Of a stretch of DNA of 64,000 nucleotides, positions 3-14,093 are shown piece after piece (positions within the stretch are counted from its first letter, which is position 1; the number at the start of each line of letters is the position of its first letter). Source of the DNA: Escherichia phage HY03; sequence record NC_031047.1, one strand, 5' to 3'. The position numbers and the translations under genes were made by a program. Under the pieces are notes generated by a model. That model worked only from the letters and a program-made list of their open reading frames with translations. It ran no database searches and was not told the origin of the DNA.

Positions 3-206
3 AACGAAATTACTGGTGGAAAACCTGCAGAGTATAAAAAGAGCGCTATTGTTCGTCAATATGCTCGTGATGCTAAAACAGTAACAAAAGAAATTGAAAT
101 TAAAGGTCTGTGGCCTACTAACGTGGGTGAACTTCAATTAGATTGGGATTCAAACAATGAAATCCAAACCTTTGAAGTAACTCTTGCTCTCGATTATTGG
201 GAATAA
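3..206 (+). CDS. 19: tail tube protein gp19, C-terminal fragment (5' end outside window)
   Basis: Open frame from window edge to TAA at 204-206 (ends ...EVTLALDYWE); sits immediately upstream of the portal gene as in T4-type phages. Confidence 0.6.
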   Translation, partial: NEITGGKPAEYKKSAIVRQYARDAKTVTKEIEIKGLWPTNVGELQLDWDSNNEIQTFEVTLALDYWE

Positions 207-238
207 AATGAATGGGGAGAAATCCCCATCCTGCTTAA

Positions 239-1863
<1,625 letters not shown>

Positions 1864-8575: not shown

Positions 8576-9706
8576 TTATGGATAGGTATAGATGATACCA
8601 GTTTCTAAAGCAGTTTTATGAATGATGTATCCATTACGCGATTCTTGAACATCAACTTCTGGATATTCTTTCATCATCTTCTGAAGAGTGTAACGATGTA
8701 GGTAATATTTACTATCTGGGTCGTCAGTTTTCCAATCTTTACCTTCTTCGGTCATTTTTTGGATTTCATCCATAACCCACCAACCGCACCAGATATAAGC
8801 TGAAGTACGATGTGGAAGAGGATGAACATAAGGTAGTTCACCTTCTGGTTCTGGAGCAACTTTATCAGTTACCTGAACTTGACCTTCTGCTGTAATAGTT
8901 TTGCTATCGTAATCAGTTGCAGTAACGACAGCAGTAACTTCAATAGTTTGACTTCCAACAGATGAGGTATCGACAGTATATACGTTAGTTGACCCTTCTA
9001 CAGGAGAAGAATCTTTCTTCCATGAGTAAGTAATTTGTGCTTCTTCTGGAGCACCCGTAACATTAGCCGTAAATGTAGCCGAAGCATCTTGCTGAACATT
9101 AATAGAAGGAGGAGTCAATGTAACCTGTGGATTCATTGTCTTCTTATTAACTGTCAATGATACTTCATTAGAAGTAACTTCCTTTTCATTGTAATTTTCA
9201 GCAGTTACTTGGGCTACGCATTTAATTCTTTTTACTCCACTTGTAGTTGGAGTATAGCTAAATGTAGAGTTAGTTTCTCCACCAACTTGTGAATCATCTA
9301 CATACCACTGATACGTAGCCGATGCGCCTGGTGGCTGCGAATCTAAGGCAGCAGTAAATTGAACAGCTGTTCCAATTACTCCAGCGTCAGGGCTATTAGG
9401 AGTTACAGCTAAGGTGGTCGTTTGTGTCTTATTTTGAACTGTGATAGTTGTAGTAGCTTCTGCTGTTTCAGCATCAGTATCTGGAACTGTATTTGTTGCA
9501 ACTACTTTAATAGTCTTTTGTCCAGCAGGTCCTTTTAATACATAATCAAAAGTTGCTTCAGCTCCATCTTGTGGAGCATCATCTACAGTCCAAGCATATG
9601 TAATAGTTCCGCCTCCAGTTTCACCACTGGGTGTAGCAGTAAACTGCTTAGTTTCATCAATAACCCCTGTCGGTGTTTTAGGAGTTATATCAACTGTAAA
9701 AGTCAT
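8576..9706 (-). CDS. hoc: Hoc, outer capsid protein with Ig-like domains
   Basis: 376-aa Thr/Val-rich repetitive protein in conserved position. Confidence 0.9.
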   Translation of the reverse strand: MTFTVDITPKTPTGVIDETKQFTATPSGETGGGTITYAWTVDDAPQDGAEATFDYVLKGPAGQKTIKVVATNTVPDTDAETAEATTTITVQNKTQTTTLAVTPNSPDAGVIGTAVQFTAALDSQPPGASATYQWYVDDSQVGGETNSTFSYTPTTSGVKRIKCVAQVTAENYNEKEVTSNEVSLTVNKKTMNPQVTLTPPSINVQQDASATFTANVTGAPEEAQITYSWKKDSSPVEGSTNVYTVDTSSVGSQTIEVTAVVTATDYDSKTITAEGQVQVTDKVAPEPEGELPYVHPLPHRTSAYIWCGWWVMDEIQKMTEEGKDWKTDDPDSKYYLHRYTLQKMMKEYPEVDVQESRNGYIIHKTALETGIIYTYP

Positions 9707-9715
9707 AAGTTATCC

Positions 9716-10396
9716 TTATTTTAATGTTACGAAAGAAGAGTTGCGTGTTTCACGAATTAAAACTGATCCGTCACGGTTAATGTAATAAATTAAGCTAAAT
9801 AAAGTTTGGTGTGCTGACGCATGTTCAAAACTAGTTGGGTGAGATTTCCAATCTGGGGTTTCAGCAATCCATTGATAAATCCACCAAGGAACAGTGCAGA
9901 ATCCTGGATTTTTTCCAATCAGCTGAAGATTCGGACTAAAGTTTTCCGGAAGAGTAAATACAGACGGCTTTTCAGATTCAATAATCTCAGCTACAGCCTG
10001 TTCGAATTTTTCTTCAACAAAAGGAGTATCTTCAATTAAAACAGTGGTATTTTCAGGAATTTTATCCGTTTCTACTACTTCAATTTTAATGTCAGATTTA
10101 ACCGGAGAATCAATCAGAAGTGCTGCCTCTGGATTGACTTCTTCATCGTCATATTTTAATCCGTCTGCGGCATCAGCAGCATCAATTAAGTCTTTAATAG
10201 ATAACCCATCAGTCTCTGGCATAGGTTCACTAGCGAGCTTCTGGAGAGCTTCTTCAATATCATTAACGATATTATCAAAAGATTTATTCTTTTTGACCTT
10301 TATACCAAACTGTTCAGCATATTCAGCTAATTTAGCTTTAGCTTCTTTATTATCATCAAGAGCCTTCAGCTCTGCAATATAATCTTTATCTATCAT
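9716..10396 (-). CDS. inh: Inh, inhibitor of prohead protease
   Basis: 226-aa ORF adjacent to hoc as in T4. Confidence 0.8.
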   Translation of the reverse strand: MIDKDYIAELKALDDNKEAKAKLAEYAEQFGIKVKKNKSFDNIVNDIEEALQKLASEPMPETDGLSIKDLIDAADAADGLKYDDEEVNPEAALLIDSPVKSDIKIEVVETDKIPENTTVLIEDTPFVEEKFEQAVAEIIESEKPSVFTLPENFSPNLQLIGKNPGFCTVPWWIYQWIAETPDWKSHPTSFEHASAHQTLFSLIYYINRDGSVLIRETRNSSFVTLK

Positions 10397-10409
10397 AATA
10401 TTTCCTCAG

Positions 10410-10417
10410 TATAAATA
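10410..10417 (+). promoter_or_regulatory. late promoter TATAAATA upstream of segE-uvsW
   Basis: Exact TATAAATA 29 nt upstream of the segE ATG. Confidence 0.55.
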
Positions 10418-10445
10418 TAGATATATTTATTACTCGGAAAATAGT

Positions 10446-11063
10446 ATGTACCACTTTGTATATGAAACAACAAATCTAATAAATGGTAAAAAGTATATAG
10501 GAAAACACTCTACTGATGACTTGAATGATGGTTACCTTGGTTCCGGTAAGGCAATTCAGCAGGCTATAAAGAAATATGGTGAAAACAATTTCTCTAGAAC
10601 AATACTAAAAGAGTTTAAAACTTCCGAAGAAGCGTACATGTATGAAGAAGAAATTATAACTCCTGAACTAATAAAAAGCAAAAATTATTATAATATGAAA
10701 CCTGGTGGAATTGGTGGAATTGTTATGACTACAGAGGTTATAGCAAAGATGAAAGAATCTTCCGCTAAAAGATTTGAAAACTCACCAGGCACGGTATTAG
10801 GTAAAACTTGTTACACCAATGGAACTAAAAATATTTTTATTAAACCTGGAGAACTTGTTCCAGAAGGATTTGTAAAAGGGATGGTTCATCCTAATAGAAA
10901 GTCCAGAAAAGGATGTAAAGTCAAACCGACTACCACAGGAACTTTTTGGGTCAATAATGGCGCAATAAATAAATTAATACAACCAGACGGTATTATTCCC
11001 GACGGATTTATTAAAGGTCGTCTCATGAAAAGAGATTCTAAAGGCAAATTTAGTAAGGCATAA
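10446..11063 (+). CDS. segE: GIY-YIG homing endonuclease (SegE-like)
   Basis: N-terminal GIY-YIG motif (YETTNLINGKKYIGKHS) with Gly-rich DNA-binding repeats; hoc/inh-uvsW position. Confidence 0.8.
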   Translation: MYHFVYETTNLINGKKYIGKHSTDDLNDGYLGSGKAIQQAIKKYGENNFSRTILKEFKTSEEAYMYEEEIITPELIKSKNYYNMKPGGIGGIVMTTEVIAKMKESSAKRFENSPGTVLGKTCYTNGTKNIFIKPGELVPEGFVKGMVHPNRKSRKGCKVKPTTTGTFWVNNGAINKLIQPDGIIPDGFIKGRLMKRDSKGKFSKA

Positions 11064-11065
11064 TT

Positions 11066-12574
11066 ATGGATATTAAAGTACATTTTCACGACTTCAGTCA
11101 TGTACGCATCGATTGTGAAGAGAGCACGTTCCACGAATTAAGAGATTTCTTTTCGTTTGAGGCCGATGGATATAGATTTAACCCTCGCTTCAGATATGGC
11201 AACTGGGATGGACGAATCCGTCTTTTAGATTATAATCGTCTTCTTCCATTCGGCTTAGTCGGGCAAATTAAAAAGTTCTGTGATAACTTTGGCTATAAAG
11301 CCTGGATTGACCCACAAATTAACGAAAAAGAAGAATTATCAAGAAAAGATTTTGATGAATGGCTTTCTAAATTAGAAATCTATTCAGGAAATAAAAGAAT
11401 TGAACCACACTGGTATCAAAAAGATGCAGTGTTCGAAGGATTAGTTAATCGTCGTAGAATTCTTAATCTTCCAACATCCGCTGGTAAATCGTTAATTCAA
11501 GCTTTGCTTGCGCGATATTATTTGGAAAATTATGAAGGTAAAATTCTTATCATTGTTCCAACAACTGCTCTAACAACTCAGATGGCTGATGACTTCGTTG
11601 ACTATCGTTTATTCAGTCATGCAATGATAAAGAAAATTGGTGGCGGAGCATCAAAAGATGATAAATATAAAAATGATGCACCAGTCGTTGTTGGTACATG
11701 GCAAACTGTAGTAAAACAACCGAAAGAATGGTTCTCACAGTTTGGAATGATGATGAATGATGAATGCCATCTTGCTACAGGAAAAAGTATTTCATCTATC
11801 ATATCAGGTTTAAATAACTGCATGTTCAAATTTGGTCTATCTGGTTCATTACGTGATGGCAAAGCCAATATCATGCAGTATGTTGGAATGTTTGGTGAAA
11901 TATTTAAGCCAGTAACGACTTCTAAGTTAATGGAAGATGGACAAGTAACTGAGCTAAAAATTAATAGTATTTTTCTTCGCTATCCCGATGAGTTCACTAC
12001 TAAATTAAAGGGAAAAACTTATCAAGAAGAAATAAAAATTATTACGGGGCTTAGTAAAAGAAATAAATGGATCGCTAAATTGGCTATTAAGCTTGCACAA
12101 AAAGATGAAAACGCTTTTGTCATGTTTAAACACGTATCGCACGGTAAAGCTATTTTCGATTTAATTAAAAATGAATACGATAAAGTTTATTACGTATCAG
12201 GGGAAGTTGATACCGAAACCCGCAACGTAATGAAAACCTTAGCTGAAAATGGTAAAGGAATAATTATAGTAGCTAGTTATGGTGTATTTTCTACTGGTAT
12301 TTCAGTTAAAAATCTGCATCACGTTGTTTTAGCGCACGGTGTTAAATCAAAAATCATTGTATTACAAACAATCGGTCGTGTATTACGTAAGCATGGTTCT
12401 AAGACAATAGCAACGGTCTGGGACCTCATTGATGACGCGGGCGTAGTTTCTAAATCAAAAACATCTTCTAAAAAATACTCGCATTTAAACTATCTTTTAA
12501 AACATGGACTTGATCGTATTCAGCGTTATGCTGATGAGAAGTTTAATTATGTGATGAAAGAGGTTAAACTTTGA
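11066..12574 (+). CDS. uvsW: UvsW RNA-DNA and DNA-DNA helicase
   Basis: 502-aa SF2 helicase (Walker A PTSAGKS, DECH box). Confidence 0.95.
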   Translation: MDIKVHFHDFSHVRIDCEESTFHELRDFFSFEADGYRFNPRFRYGNWDGRIRLLDYNRLLPFGLVGQIKKFCDNFGYKAWIDPQINEKEELSRKDFDEWLSKLEIYSGNKRIEPHWYQKDAVFEGLVNRRRILNLPTSAGKSLIQALLARYYLENYEGKILIIVPTTALTTQMADDFVDYRLFSHAMIKKIGGGASKDDKYKNDAPVVVGTWQTVVKQPKEWFSQFGMMMNDECHLATGKSISSIISGLNNCMFKFGLSGSLRDGKANIMQYVGMFGEIFKPVTTSKLMEDGQVTELKINSIFLRYPDEFTTKLKGKTYQEEIKIITGLSKRNKWIAKLAIKLAQKDENAFVMFKHVSHGKAIFDLIKNEYDKVYYVSGEVDTETRNVMKTLAENGKGIIIVASYGVFSTGISVKNLHHVVLAHGVKSKIIVLQTIGRVLRKHGSKTIATVWDLIDDAGVVSKSKTSSKKYSHLNYLLKHGLDRIQRYADEKFNYVMKEVKL

Positions 12575-13263
12575 ATTATAAATTAATATACGATAATTTA
12601 ATTAATAGAGCCCAGAATCGGGCTCGCCTTAATGGATACACTGAAACTCATCATATAATTCCTAGATGTATGGGCGGTACAGATGATAAGTGTAATTTGG
12701 TAGAACTAACAGCTGAAGAGCATTTTATAGCTCATAAACTTTTAGCTAAAATTCATCCAAACCATTACGGTATAATTAAAGCCGTTATATGTATGGGGAT
12801 GAATTCAAAAACTCATGAAAGACACGTTAATAAATCTTACGCCTGGGAACGTCGTAAAATGGCAGAACTTCAATCAGGTGAAGGTAATCCATTTTACGGA
12901 AAACACCATACGGAAGAACATAAACAATATATGTCAAAACTCATGAAAAATCGTCCAATTACGTGGGGAAGTAAAATTAGTAAAACTAAAAGAATGAACC
13001 CAACAAAATGGACTGAAGAAGCTAAAAGATTGCATTCTATCAATCAATCAGGTAAAAATAATGGCATGTATGGAAGGAAACATTCCGCTAAATCTATTCA
13101 GAAAATTAAAGATAACATGCCAGATAATTCAGGAGCTAATAACCCAGCTGCTAAACCTATAGAAGTAAATGGTGTTAAGTATAAATGCATGAAAGATGCT
13201 TCTAAAGCTACTGGATTATCAATGTACAAACTAAGAATACTTAGAAAAACAGTTAATTTATAA
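12571..13263 (+). CDS. HNH homing endonuclease, free-standing, with repeated Gly-rich DNA-binding modules
   Basis: HNH motif THHIIPRCMGG...NLVELTAEEH; TTG start overlapping uvsW stop with GAGG RBS; no ORF at this position in T4 as I recall it. Confidence 0.8.
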   Translation: MNYKLIYDNLINRAQNRARLNGYTETHHIIPRCMGGTDDKCNLVELTAEEHFIAHKLLAKIHPNHYGIIKAVICMGMNSKTHERHVNKSYAWERRKMAELQSGEGNPFYGKHHTEEHKQYMSKLMKNRPITWGSKISKTKRMNPTKWTEEAKRLHSINQSGKNNGMYGRKHSAKSIQKIKDNMPDNSGANNPAAKPIEVNGVKYKCMKDASKATGLSMYKLRILRKTVNL

Positions 13264-13277
13264 GGGCTTCGGCCCTT
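13262..13277 (+). terminator. stem-loop AAGGGC-UUCG-GCCCUU between the HNH gene and uvsW.1
   Basis: Perfect stem with UUCG tetraloop directly after the HNH stop. Confidence 0.5.
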
Positions 13278-13288
13278 TGGAGAAAAAG

Positions 13289-13519
13289 ATGTTACTAGAA
13301 TTTAAACAATTTCTTTATGAAGCTTCTATTGATGAATTTATGGGTAAAATTGCCTCTTGCCAAACATTAGAAGGTCTAGAAGAACTTGAAGCTTATTACA
13401 AGAAAAGAGTTAAAGAAACTGAATTAAAAGATACTGATGACATCTCTGTGAGAGATGCTTTGGCAGGAAAAAGAGCTGAATTAGAAGATTCAGACGATGA
13501 AGTAGAAGAAAGCTTTTAA
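13289..13519 (+). CDS. uvsW.1: UvsW.1-like small acidic protein
   Basis: 76 aa from ATG 13289 (ORF track begins at upstream TTG); GGAG RBS. Confidence 0.75.
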   Translation: MLLEFKQFLYEASIDEFMGKIASCQTLEGLEELEAYYKKRVKETELKDTDDISVRDALAGKRAELEDSDDEVEESF

Positions 13520-13574
13520 ATTAAAAAAGGCCCAACCAAAAAGGAAGGGCCAAAACTATAGACTAAAGGTCACA

Positions 13575-13742
13575 CTATAGCAAAAGTTGTGTTTCATTTA
13601 ATTGTTCTTCCGAACTTTCTGAAACTGGTAGTTCTTTAATGTAATTATAGCAAGGCCCAGGATGTACAGGACCTTTGTCTGTTTCAACAACCAATGCAGA
13701 ATCGATTGGAGTTTTACAGACAACACAAATCTTATCTGACAT
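13575..13742 (-). CDS. small Cys-rich protein (uvsY.-2 position)
   Basis: 55 aa from internal ATG with AGGAG RBS; CxxC...C motif. Confidence 0.6.
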   Translation of the reverse strand: MSDKICVVCKTPIDSALVVETDKGPVHPGPCYNYIKELPVSESSEEQLNETQLLL

Positions 13743-13865
13743 GATTGTCTCCTTTTGAATATAGTAATATTTATAAACCCATTTTAATCCGCATTTCTTG
13801 TACACGGATTAAGCAAGCTTCCATCTCTGCTAATAGTCGAAATACTTCTTTATAATCTGTCATAT

Positions 13866-14093
13866 TTACCCCATATCTCTCATATGCATATCAATGCCCA
13901 TATCTTTAGAATAAAAATATTCATCAAGATATCCGGCAAATTTTCCTTTAATATAAAGGACATCTTCACCACACGGGTGGTCGGCCAGGATACGAATATC
14001 CTGACGCTTAAGATTATGCTTTTTCATTAAGAATTGAATCTCAGTTTCAAATTCTTCTTCATAATTAAAAGCATCATCAATGCTATATCTCAT
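13866..14093 (-). CDS. UvsY.-1-like protein
   Basis: 75-aa ORF immediately downstream of uvsY. Confidence 0.7.
   Translation of the reverse strand: MRYSIDDAFNYEEEFETEIQFLMKKHNLKRQDIRILADHPCGEDVLYIKGKFAGYLDEYFYSKDMGIDMHMRDMG

Follow-up and report, generated by a model that had tools for sequence, protein, structure and literature searches.

Does the open reading frame (ORF) that separates the helicase gene uvsW from uvsW.1 in Escherichia phage HY03 represent a mobile gene inserted into a T4-type operon, and how is it fitted there? The window analyzed here is a 64,000-nucleotide stretch of the phage genome (NC_031047.1). An earlier note on this DNA, made by reading the sequence, had proposed a free-standing HNH homing endonuclease gene at this place. 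We find that the ORF probably belongs to a ~689-nt cassette with a free-standing, MobE-like gene for an HNH homing endonuclease, set in uvsW just before its last five codons and mobile by cleavage and repair. The gene is ordinary in kind: its family is known, and it has been annotated before, though not characterised.

A predicted HNH endonuclease of the Mob family

The 230-aa ORF starting at a TTG over the uvsW stop was borne out (Table 1). Its HNH motif, HHIIPRCMGGTDDKCNLVELTAEEHFIAH (residues 27–55), is intact; H28, N42, H51 and H55 were invariant and H27 nearly invariant in a family alignment of 43 sequences. The AlphaFold model of the product (overall pLDDT 86) has a beta-beta-alpha topology, with strands at residues 25–28 and 43–46 and a helix at residues 48–61 (pLDDT >93 there), and phmmer aligned the motif to the HNH domain of the group II intron maturase 6me0. 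With a conserved His (general base), Asn and His (metal ligand) on a predicted beta-hairpin followed by a helix, the product is assigned to the HNH (beta-beta-alpha-metal) nuclease superfamily.

The HMM and protein searches that had been proposed as a check gave a match to PHROG 655 “homing endonuclease” at 1.6e-61, and the Gly-rich modules described in the note proved to be NUMOD3 (PF07460), which scored 51.8 bits (cut-off 20.4) in two stretches. Pfam HNH (PF01844) stayed below its gathering threshold (16.8 vs 21.4 bits, E 0.0079); this model performs poorly on HNH domains of the Mob type, and most homologs also fail to match it. Residues 157–216 gave an alignment with 1i3j, the DNA-binding domain of I-TevI. 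The N-terminal 124 aa were ~48% identical to MobE of RB7/RB3, with no similarity beyond. This combination of a shared N-terminal HNH domain and a member-specific C-terminal domain places the predicted product in the T4 Mob family (MobA–E-like). To this family, a classic model of selfish DNA, the gene would add a member that is uncharacterised but whose insertion site is defined; current understanding of homing is unchanged by it.

Anatomy of the insertion

In T4 (NC_000866), T2, RB14 and AR1, uvsW is followed directly by uvsW.1, as the note had stated for T4, and the uninterrupted junction reads ATGAAA, then ACAGTTAATTTATAA-GGGCTTCGGCCC; the gene is present in T6. T2, RB14 and AR1 served as the junction reference, the T4 RefSeq record having known sequence errors there, and a first MAFFT alignment of HY03 with T4, which misplaced the left flank, was set aside.

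Comparison of the junctions places the insertion inside the reading frame of uvsW, directly upstream of its final five codons, and delimits a predicted cassette of ~689 nt (12560–13248). The gene is thus extra to T4 as claimed, but its site is not intergenic. In HY03 a surrogate uvsW tail, GAG GTT AAA CTT TGA (EVKL*, 12560–12574), replaces the native ACA GTT AAT TTA TAA, and the native TVNL* tail with its stop is now read in frame as the endonuclease C-terminus. The cassette supplies this replacement tail, which holds the putative Shine-Dalgarno sequence for the weak TTG start. Positions 13246–13276 are 100% identical in phages without the gene. Since the endonuclease ORF uses the former uvsW tail and stop as its own end, the insert leaves both the native UUCG hairpin and the ribosome site of uvsW.1 untouched. 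The note had located this hairpin correctly, at the end of the ORF and before the uvsW.1 ribosome-binding site (RBS), but it is not part of the insert: GGGC(UUCG)GCCC (fold −9.5 kcal/mol, z −1.4) is unchanged in T2, RB14 and AR1, native to all T-evens and outside the inserted DNA.

Two other carriers retain the duplicated tail more faithfully: a perfect 17-nt repeat, ATTAAACAGGTGGAAAT, stands at both gene ends in SP18, and AAAAGAGGTTAAATT at both gene ends in PM2, whereas the two tail copies that flank the gene in HY03 have diverged.

Table 1 Features of the segE–uvsW.1 region of the HY03 window.
Feature	Position	Strand	Description
T4-type late promoter consensus TATAAATA	10410..10417	+	Upstream of segE; presumed driver, putative function
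segE-like GIY-YIG homing endonuclease gene	10446..11063	+	5′ side of uvsW; Pfam SegE_GIY-YIG 6.6e-09
uvsW helicase gene, host of the insertion	11066..12574	+	502 aa; Pfam UvsW_N 8.3e-44, ResIII, Helicase_C
Diverged tract of the uvsW 3′ end, linked to the endonuclease gene	12434..12559	+	Roughly 125 nt; segments A and B
Left end of insert	12557..12574	+	Shine-Dalgarno AAAGAGG (12557–12563) within surrogate uvsW tail; reading and alignment to T2, RB14, AR1, T4
HNH homing endonuclease ORF	12571..13263	+	230 aa; TTG start overlapping uvsW stop
Internal mRNA hairpin GAGCCC-AGAAUC-GGGCUC	12608..12625	+	Codons 13–19 of HNH ORF
HNH (beta-beta-alpha-metal) catalytic motif	12637..12735	+	Residues 23–55: YTETHHIIPRCMGGTDDKCNLVELTAEEHFIAH
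NUMOD3 repeat 1	12850..12936	+	Residues 94–122; Pfam PF07460
NUMOD3 repeat 2	13039..13125	+	Approximately residues 157–185; second Pfam stretch
C-terminal helix-turn-helix-like module	13147..13224	+	Residues about 193–218; putative resemblance to I-TevI DNA-binding domain
Right end of insert	13246..13263	+	Native uvsW tail AAA ACA GTT AAT TTA TAA (KTVNL*)
GGGC(UUCG)GCCC hairpin	13264..13275	+	Directly after HNH ORF TAA; between uvsW and uvsW.1 in gene-less phages
uvsW.1	13279..13519	+	RBS GGAG 13279–13282, ATG 13289, 76 aa; Pfam UvsW-1 1.7e-30

Distribution among phages and the linked tract in uvsW

Across the phage collection, the uvsW–uvsW.1 junction was uninterrupted in 449 records, and the HNH gene was present in 47, T6 among them. 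An ortholog at this position in T4 or in most close relatives had been named as the finding that would speak against an insertion; because T4 lacks the gene and uninterrupted records outnumber carriers to this extent, the proposal stands. Orthologs at tblastn E ≤ 1e-40 were found in 73 phage records, and a helicase/uvsW annotation adjoined the ortholog in 60/60 of the matches listed. Orthologs occupied the same junction in seven genera, so the gene is an old resident polymorphism and not a recent novelty. Nor is it new to annotation: T6 and about 46 further public genomes already have it annotated, as a homing endonuclease in T6, PST, ACG-C40 and others. The IMG/VR scan returned two close orthologs only, both isolate genomes, plus distant paralogs, and told nothing more about distribution. 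A literature search found no paper describing the gene; in the genome paper of UFV-AREG1 both neighbouring “helicase” CDS are listed, with no remark on the CDS that they enclose.

On the left of the insertion, the 3′ end of uvsW forms a diverged tract. Identity to phages without the gene falls there to 35–37/60 and then 49–50/60, against about 58/60 elsewhere, and the tract is nearly identical among carriers. Segment A (about 12434–12486) has many amino-acid changes; segment B (about 12487–12559) has 11 changes, mostly synonymous. Segment A is also found in a few gene-less genomes.

The segment A haplotype occurred in 51 records, 47 of them (47/51) with the gene, and OES_C-1 is a gene-less recombinant that keeps part of the linked tract. 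The same left-sided pattern as in Tequatrovirus was present in Klebsiella phages, where Roth04 and Roth20 matched at 54, 48 and 43 of 60 positions near the gene, at about 59/60 elsewhere and at 60/60 in the right flank. We read the diverged tract as a footprint of co-conversion and/or target immunity. A tract so sharp and one-sided in two genera would point to where the cleavage site should lie, the uvsW target site being placed from polymorphism patterns only; the cassette would also explain why T-even phages have two haplotypes of the uvsW 3′ end and UvsW C-terminus. Patchy distribution, a linked flanking haplotype, a duplicated target tail and one decayed copy (the gene is frameshifted in BF15) were thus found together as comparative footprints of homing, in keeping with the mobile-gene insertion first suggested.

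Part of this pattern would also fit a resident gene that is no longer mobile, whether domesticated or decaying. Such a gene would have been at this locus, inherited mostly vertically, before the genera of Tevenvirinae diverged, and most lineages, T4 included, would have lost it through an exact deletion between the two copies of the uvsW tail. Orthologs share one site in seven genera and between genera their divergence roughly tracks that of UvsW, so that vertical persistence over a long time, with a loss now and then, could account for much of the distribution without frequent homing; the direct repeats of the uvsW tail that flank the gene could mediate clean loss, and the frameshifted BF15 copy and the partial tract in OES_C-1 would agree with it. 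We nevertheless consider a purely resident gene unlikely. The dN/dS ratio of the ORF was 0.06–0.35, and purifying selection was strong even among near-identical Tequatrovirus copies (0.06 for HY03 vs T6); the catalytic residues of the family are invariant; and within genera, carriers and non-carriers are ~97–99% identical, with a sharp difference only in the tract beside the gene. Divergence confined in this way is a pattern of gene conversion, not of old vertical descent.

Comparison with segE, MobE and other known systems

The free-standing gene for MobE, an HNH homing endonuclease of T4/RB3, lies between nrdA and nrdB, and MobE was shown to nick T2 nrdB and promote homing (Wilson & Edgell 2009, PMC2790892). 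The HNH ORF resembles it in the N-terminal HNH domain (about 48–50% identical over 124–134 aa), in a cassette that may be promoterless and whose start overlaps the stop of the upstream gene, in a stem-loop about 30 nt into the ORF at homologous codons, and in polymorphisms of the neighbouring host gene linked to endonuclease presence. It differs in lying in the uvsW tail instead of the nrdA/nrdB spacer, in being inserted within host coding sequence with the tail replaced, in starting with TTG in place of ATG, in a hairpin without a U-tract, and in a C-terminal half made of two NUMOD3 repeats and a putative I-TevI-like helix-turn-helix; the HNH ORF is, moreover, known from sequence alone. I-TevI (1i3j/1t2t) and I-HmuI (1u3e) likewise have a nuclease domain, NUMOD3-type helices and a C-terminal helix-turn-helix, with weak structural scores for the full-length model; both are intron-encoded, and the nuclease of I-TevI is of the GIY-YIG type. 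MobA of T4 reportedly travels with the gene 60 bypass cassette, an observation attributed to Bonocora et al. 2011. There too an HNH Mob endonuclease comes with additional DNA that changes its host gene at the target site, although the additional DNA of the HNH ORF consists of a five-codon replacement and a diverged 3′ tract, with no translational bypass and the gene unsplit.

SegE of T4, a GIY-YIG endonuclease inserted between inh and uvsW, cleaves uvsW of phages lacking SegE (PMC2988022). The HNH endonuclease would target the same host gene from the other end, and a linked diverged tract also lies beside segE, at the uvsW 5′ end. The two differ in that SegE belongs to an unrelated nuclease family, that segE is truly intergenic and that it is gained and lost independently: segE is annotated in T4, RB14 and AR1, and all four combinations of segE and HNH gene presence exist. 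In HY03, uvsW is bracketed by these two different endonuclease genes.

Such bracketing, together with the purifying selection on the HNH gene, might suggest that the protein serves mainly in competition between phages (localised marker exclusion or the cutting of co-infecting relatives) or in some service to the host phage, and less in the spread of its own gene, the tight fit to uvsW then reflecting selection on the phage and not on a selfish element. T4 seg and mob endonucleases do cause marker exclusion (Edgell review, PMC2988022). Exclusion and homing are, however, two outcomes of one cleavage-and-repair event, so the competition reading is not really distinct from homing, and the sequence gave no sign of a function beyond site-specific DNA cutting; a separate role of this kind appears very improbable.

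Expression and proposed mechanism

The late operon of the note is presumptive, being based on textbook knowledge of uvsW and on one late-promoter consensus. This consensus, TATAAATA at 10410, was the sole exact match on the plus strand in 10300–13300, with none on that strand between 10418 and 13300. Sigma-70-like sites were no commoner than in shuffles, and a sigma-70 scan is uninformative for a T4 late region. We presume a transcript from the 10410 promoter that covers segE, uvsW, the endonuclease gene and uvsW.1.

Direct reading of the sequence places the TTG (12571–12573) over the uvsW stop TGA (12572–12574); with respect to uvsW the HNH ORF is in the −1 frame. No in-frame ATG occurs upstream of the HNH motif. 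The Shine-Dalgarno sequence ends 7 nt before the TTG. The TTG start is credible because six other lineages start at the same NTGA overlap, with TTG, GTG or ATG; each of the seven lineages has a purine-rich Shine-Dalgarno sequence upstream. A chance or mis-called ORF, or one made only as a UvsW fusion by frameshifting and not from the TTG, might be suspected from the unusual start and the −1 overlap with the uvsW stop, but is scarcely conceivable given family E-values of 1e-61, 73 orthologous records and a start at the identical codon in seven lineages. A direct reading of the junction showed that the canonical slippery heptamer is absent, and with the start codons conserved a frameshift fusion to UvsW was rejected.

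For a mobile HNH cassette, the favoured explanation, we propose the following course. The gene would have no promoter of its own and would share one transcript with segE and uvsW, begun at the 10410 late promoter, and the endonuclease would be translated at a low level through coupling to uvsW termination, perhaps further damped by an internal hairpin that is the counterpart of the mobE internal terminator. During mixed infection, the NUMOD3 and helix-turn-helix modules would attach to an uninterrupted uvsW at its 3′ end, and the HNH domain would nick or cut it. T4 recombination repair would then copy into the recipient the cassette together with about 125–200 nt from the 3′ end of the donor uvsW. 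Carrier genomes may be guarded against self-cleavage by their diverged tract and split junction. Such an anatomy would fit an endonuclease gene into an essential-pathway operon at almost no cost, by way of a replacement tail with a ribosome site, a weak TTG, a damping hairpin and read-out through the host stop.

We tentatively raise a further possibility, that the mobile unit extends beyond the endonuclease ORF. It would be a cassette rewriting the C-terminus of the invaded helicase and about 125 nt of its 3′ coding sequence, with its own RBS hidden in the altered tail and the host stop and UUCG hairpin borrowed. If so, with segE at the other end, two independent endonucleases would enclose the whole of uvsW, which could be carried in trans. 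As a separate matter, the conserved internal hairpin, without a U-tract in seven genera, may be a general regulatory RNA element of the Mob family, which could act in mRNA stability, pausing or translational damping and not as a classical terminator.

Because the loops differ in length, MAFFT did not align the stems in register, and the internal hairpin was assessed instead by folding each lineage separately, by sliding-window ranking and by synonymous resampling. It ranked first among the local folds of the ORF in 7/7 lineages (ORF nt about 25–60), with differing stem sequences, compensatory changes, G-U pairs and GNRA loops across them. In 6/7 lineages it was more stable than almost all synonymous resamples, and in HY03 only marginally better than them (215/2000). 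The terminator hairpin of RB3 mobE lies in homologous codons (SRAQARE vs NRAQNRA). After the stem, HY03 has GCCUUAAUGG, no U-run follows in any of the seven lineages, and the mobE sequence is CCUUUAUCU; a terminator role is uncertain because the mobE-type U-tract is lacking. Rfam gave no match in 12300–13600, and a terminator scan flagged the internal hairpin on the minus strand only. An 11-bp hairpin was present at the same ORF position in three paralogs from IMG/VR (L020–L022).

Insertion site and gene order

The window belongs to a mosaic T4-like phage of the genus Tequatrovirus and is approximately 96–97% identical to its nearest deposited relatives. Direct reading agreed with the earlier note on a 230-aa ORF whose TTG start codon (12571-12573) overlaps the uvsW TGA (12572-12574). 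A good Shine-Dalgarno sequence, AAAGAGG (12557-12563), lies 7 nt 5' of the TTG. On the 3' side, the TAA of the ORF is followed by the hairpin GGGC-UUCG-GCCC (13264-13275), which was correctly placed just before the uvsW.1 ribosome-binding site, then GGAG and the uvsW.1 ATG.

Features of the uvsW region and of the diverged uvsW 3' tract (segments A and B) linked to the HNH gene
Feature	Coordinates	Strand	Remarks
hoc	8576..9706	-	
inh	9716..10396	-	
segE-like GIY-YIG gene	10446..11063	+	
uvsW	11066..12574	+	
Segment A	~12434-12486		many amino-acid changes
Segment B	~12487-12559		11 changes, mostly third-position
HNH ORF	12571..13263	+	230 aa
uvsW.1	13289 (true ATG)..13519	+	

In T4, T2, RB14 and AR1, uvsW directly precedes uvsW.1 without the HNH gene. 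The T2, RB14 and AR1 junction reads ...AATTACGTAATGAAA ACA GTT AAT TTA TAA GGGCTTCGGCCC TTTGGAG..., and that of the window ...AATTATGTGATGAAA GAG GTT AAA CTT TGA-[ORF]-AGA AAA ACA GTT AAT TTA TAA GGGCTTCGGCCC. This comparison places the insert (12560-13248, 689 nt, by alignment to uninterrupted junctions) inside uvsW, ahead of its last five codons. The mobile-gene insertion previously proposed was thus upheld, but its position is within uvsW and not between uvsW and uvsW.1. The insert supplies a surrogate uvsW tail (EVKL* replacing TVNL*) that creates the Shine-Dalgarno sequence of the HNH ORF, and the ORF itself runs in frame into the native uvsW tail, whose stop codon it uses. Since 13246-13276 (31 nt, including the UUCG hairpin) is 100% identical in phages without the HNH gene, the hairpin is host sequence outside the mobile gene, and not the end of the insert as had been thought. 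Copies of the uvsW tail flank the HNH gene on both sides, as a perfect 17-nt repeat in SP18 and as AAAAGAGGTTAAATT in PM2. The surrogate tail of the window, KEVKL, is of the PM2 type and not the Tequatrovirus type, which suggests a diverged donor for the left end of the insert.

The T4 RefSeq record NC_000866 contains old sequence errors at this junction (locus L001, 4170-4200; TTTAATAAGCTTCGG in place of TTTATAAGGGCTTCGG) and annotates uvsW and uvsW.1 as a single 587-aa fusion, which matters to anyone taking T4 as the comparison. In PM2 (locus L095, 1-1804), uvsW seems to be broken into two CDS annotated 'DNA helicase'; an additional hypothetical ORF of 291 aa (46..921) overlaps the break and may be another mobile insertion in uvsW. 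Downstream of uvsW.1, between the minus-strand uvsY.-2 and uvsY.-1, 13735-13900 showed 21-39/60 identity to T4, T6, T2, RB14, NIC06P2 and BF15 and 48-55/60 to AR1 and SYGD1; an extra 30-aa ORF is annotated in the matching region of SYGD1, and the stretch appears to be a local replacement or small-ORF swap.

Domain organization of the protein

The protein has the modular layout usual for phage homing endonucleases: an HNH nuclease domain, then two NUMOD3 repeats, then a helix-turn-helix. HMM searches against Pfam gave two NUMOD3 stretches (51.8 bits vs a cut-off of 20.4), a sub-threshold HNH match (16.8 vs 21.4) and a weak match to the I-TevI DNA-binding domain, and PHROG 655 ('homing endonuclease') covered residues 1-217 (1.6e-61). 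H28, N42, H51 and H55 were invariant in the family alignment (n=43 sequences) and H27 nearly so; with these intact catalytic residues and the two NUMOD3 stretches, the HNH motif and repeated DNA-binding modules noticed earlier were borne out. In the AlphaFold model (pLDDT 86.4), the catalytic residues lie on strand 25-28, strand 43-46 and helix 48-61, a predicted beta-beta-alpha-metal topology. Against PDB sequences, residues 23-55 aligned to an HNH domain, and the stretch 157-216 aligned to 1i3j, the DNA-binding domain of I-TevI (E 0.006). Fold searches with the whole model gave weak matches: I-HmuI, HNH domains and the DNA-binding domain of I-TevI were among them, but so were many unrelated weak matches with equal or better scores.

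MobE of RB7/RB3 was approximately 48% identical to the N-terminal 124 aa (tblastn, with pairwise alignment in agreement), the likeness ending past the first NUMOD3 motif in the pairwise alignment. The gene conforms closely to the MobE paradigm and is an uncharacterised member of a known homing endonuclease type. Many public genomes, T6 among them, already list it as a homing endonuclease, 'mobD', 'mobile endonuclease E' or a hypothetical protein; a paper on the gene itself was not found in the literature.

Distribution

The insert was present in 47 of the 747 phage records matching the flanks, and the same 47 had at least 95% protein identity to the HNH ORF by tblastn. These carriers include T6, PST, EC121, ACG-C40 and UFV-AREG1. 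The T2-type junction was uninterrupted in 449 records, and T4 likewise has no gene there, in line with the earlier note. With a diverged ortholog as the query, full-length orthologs were found in 73 records, and 60/60 matches listed adjoin uvsW. Seven genera were inspected: Tequatrovirus, Gaprivervirus (SP18), Dhakavirus (UP19), Moonvirus (NM4.3), a Klebsiella group (Roth04), Gualtarvirus (Rgz1) and Bragavirus (PM2). In all seven, the start codon (TTG, GTG or ATG) overlaps the stop of uvsW within an NTGA. Because endonuclease divergence between genera roughly tracks that of UvsW, the association with this site is considered old, with spread mainly within genera. All four presence/absence combinations of segE and the HNH gene occur, so the two move independently.

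Expression and the internal hairpin

Only one exact T4-type late-promoter match lies on the + strand within 10300-13300, at 10410 on the 5' side of segE. The HNH gene accordingly resembles a promoterless cassette, as has been described for seven of the T4 seg and mob genes (Edgell review, PMC2988022). Two 7/8 matches inside the ORF, at 12577-12584 and 13180-13187 (TATAAATT, TATAAATG), probably reflect chance in an AT-rich genome; the second, about 100 nt upstream of uvsW.1, could in principle restore its independent late transcription.

A stable hairpin, GAGCCC-AGAAUC-GGGCUC, lies within the ORF at 12608-12625, and among 30-nt local folds across the ORF the strongest was at ORF nt ~25-60 in 7/7 lineages. 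Stem sequence varies between lineages, G-U pairs occur in several stems, and the loop is GAAA in four lineages; this indicates a coding-strand element at the RNA level. Synonymous resamples matched or beat native stability in 0-63/2000 cases in six lineages and in 215/2000 in the window, where the peptide is itself shaped by the palindrome, hence the weaker result. T4 mobE carries a stem-loop 27 nt past its AUG, a weak (30-50%) intrinsic terminator that limits mobE transcripts (Wilson and Edgell, PMC2790892). The RB3 mobE hairpin occupies homologous codons (SRAQARE in mobE, NRAQNRA in the HNH ORF), making the internal hairpin its counterpart. Unlike in the mobE terminator, a U-tract 3' of the hairpin was found in none of the seven lineages, and the element may act on termination, pausing, mRNA stability or translation.

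Three paralogous HNH genes on metagenomic phage contigs of IMG/VR (L020, L021 and L022; 41-48% identity) form a perfect stem of 11 bp, closed by a GAAA/GGAA loop, at the corresponding position (ORF nt 36-65). The hairpin was not found at that position in paralogs L014, L016, L017 and L019, and it is thus a trait of a Mob-family sub-clade.

Flanking tracts, selection and proposed homing

In sliding comparisons of Tequatrovirus uvsW, carriers and non-carriers (phages with an uninterrupted junction) were approximately 97% identical save for the last ~125 nt before the insert, where identity fell to 35-37/60 and 49-50/60 while carriers remained near-identical among themselves. No carrier-linked diverged tract was found on the right flank (uvsW.1). 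Klebsiella phages Roth04 (carrier) and Roth20 (non-carrier) repeat this pattern independently: identity was 57-60/60, mostly 59-60, over most of uvsW, then 54, 48 and 43 of 60 across the final 200 nt before the gene, and 60/60 again in uvsW.1.

The segment A haplotype occurred in 51 records, namely the 47 carriers and four others (OES_C-1 [locus L011, 2000-2170], OES_C-2, OES_C-3 and LH2). These four lack the HNH gene and arose either by recombination or by gene loss. In OES_C-1 the change to non-carrier sequence falls precisely on the boundary between A and B, which makes it a recombinant; by identity classes, OES_C-2, OES_C-3 and LH2 are probably the same. All four could serve as natural substrates for finding where cleavage occurs.

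The HNH gene is under purifying selection (dN/dS 0.06 for the window vs T6, 0.07-0.37 between genera). BF15 (locus L010, 2501-3190) has a decaying copy, in which a 4-nt deletion cuts the protein to 195 aa. The tract, the selection and the decayed copy would be expected of an endonuclease gene spread by gene conversion with flanking donor sequence, and would also fit protection of its own genome by target-site changes with occasional decay.

We propose that the HNH gene is co-transcribed late with uvsW and translated at a low level from its TTG, coupled to uvsW. The NUMOD3 and helix-turn-helix modules would bind the uninterrupted uvsW 3' end, and the HNH domain would nick or break the DNA, with the uvsW side of the junction the likeliest place, since the linked tract lies on that side only. 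Repair from a carrier genome would copy the cassette, and carriers would be immune through their split junction and variant tract. Three points are modestly new: the replacement of the uvsW tail by one that contains a ribosome site; the recurrence of the one-sided tract in two genera, which narrows down the probable target; and the internal hairpin, which is shared across the family and lacks a U-tract.

At the opposite end of uvsW, the first ~170 nt (11046-11218) showed identities of 38-47 of 53-60 between phages with segE (the window, T4, T6, RB14 and AR1) and without it (T2, NIC06P2, SYGD1 and BF15), the remainder of uvsW being ~97% identical. This segE-linked tract mirrors the HNH-linked one and fits the published SegE target, which lies in uvsW (PMC2988022).
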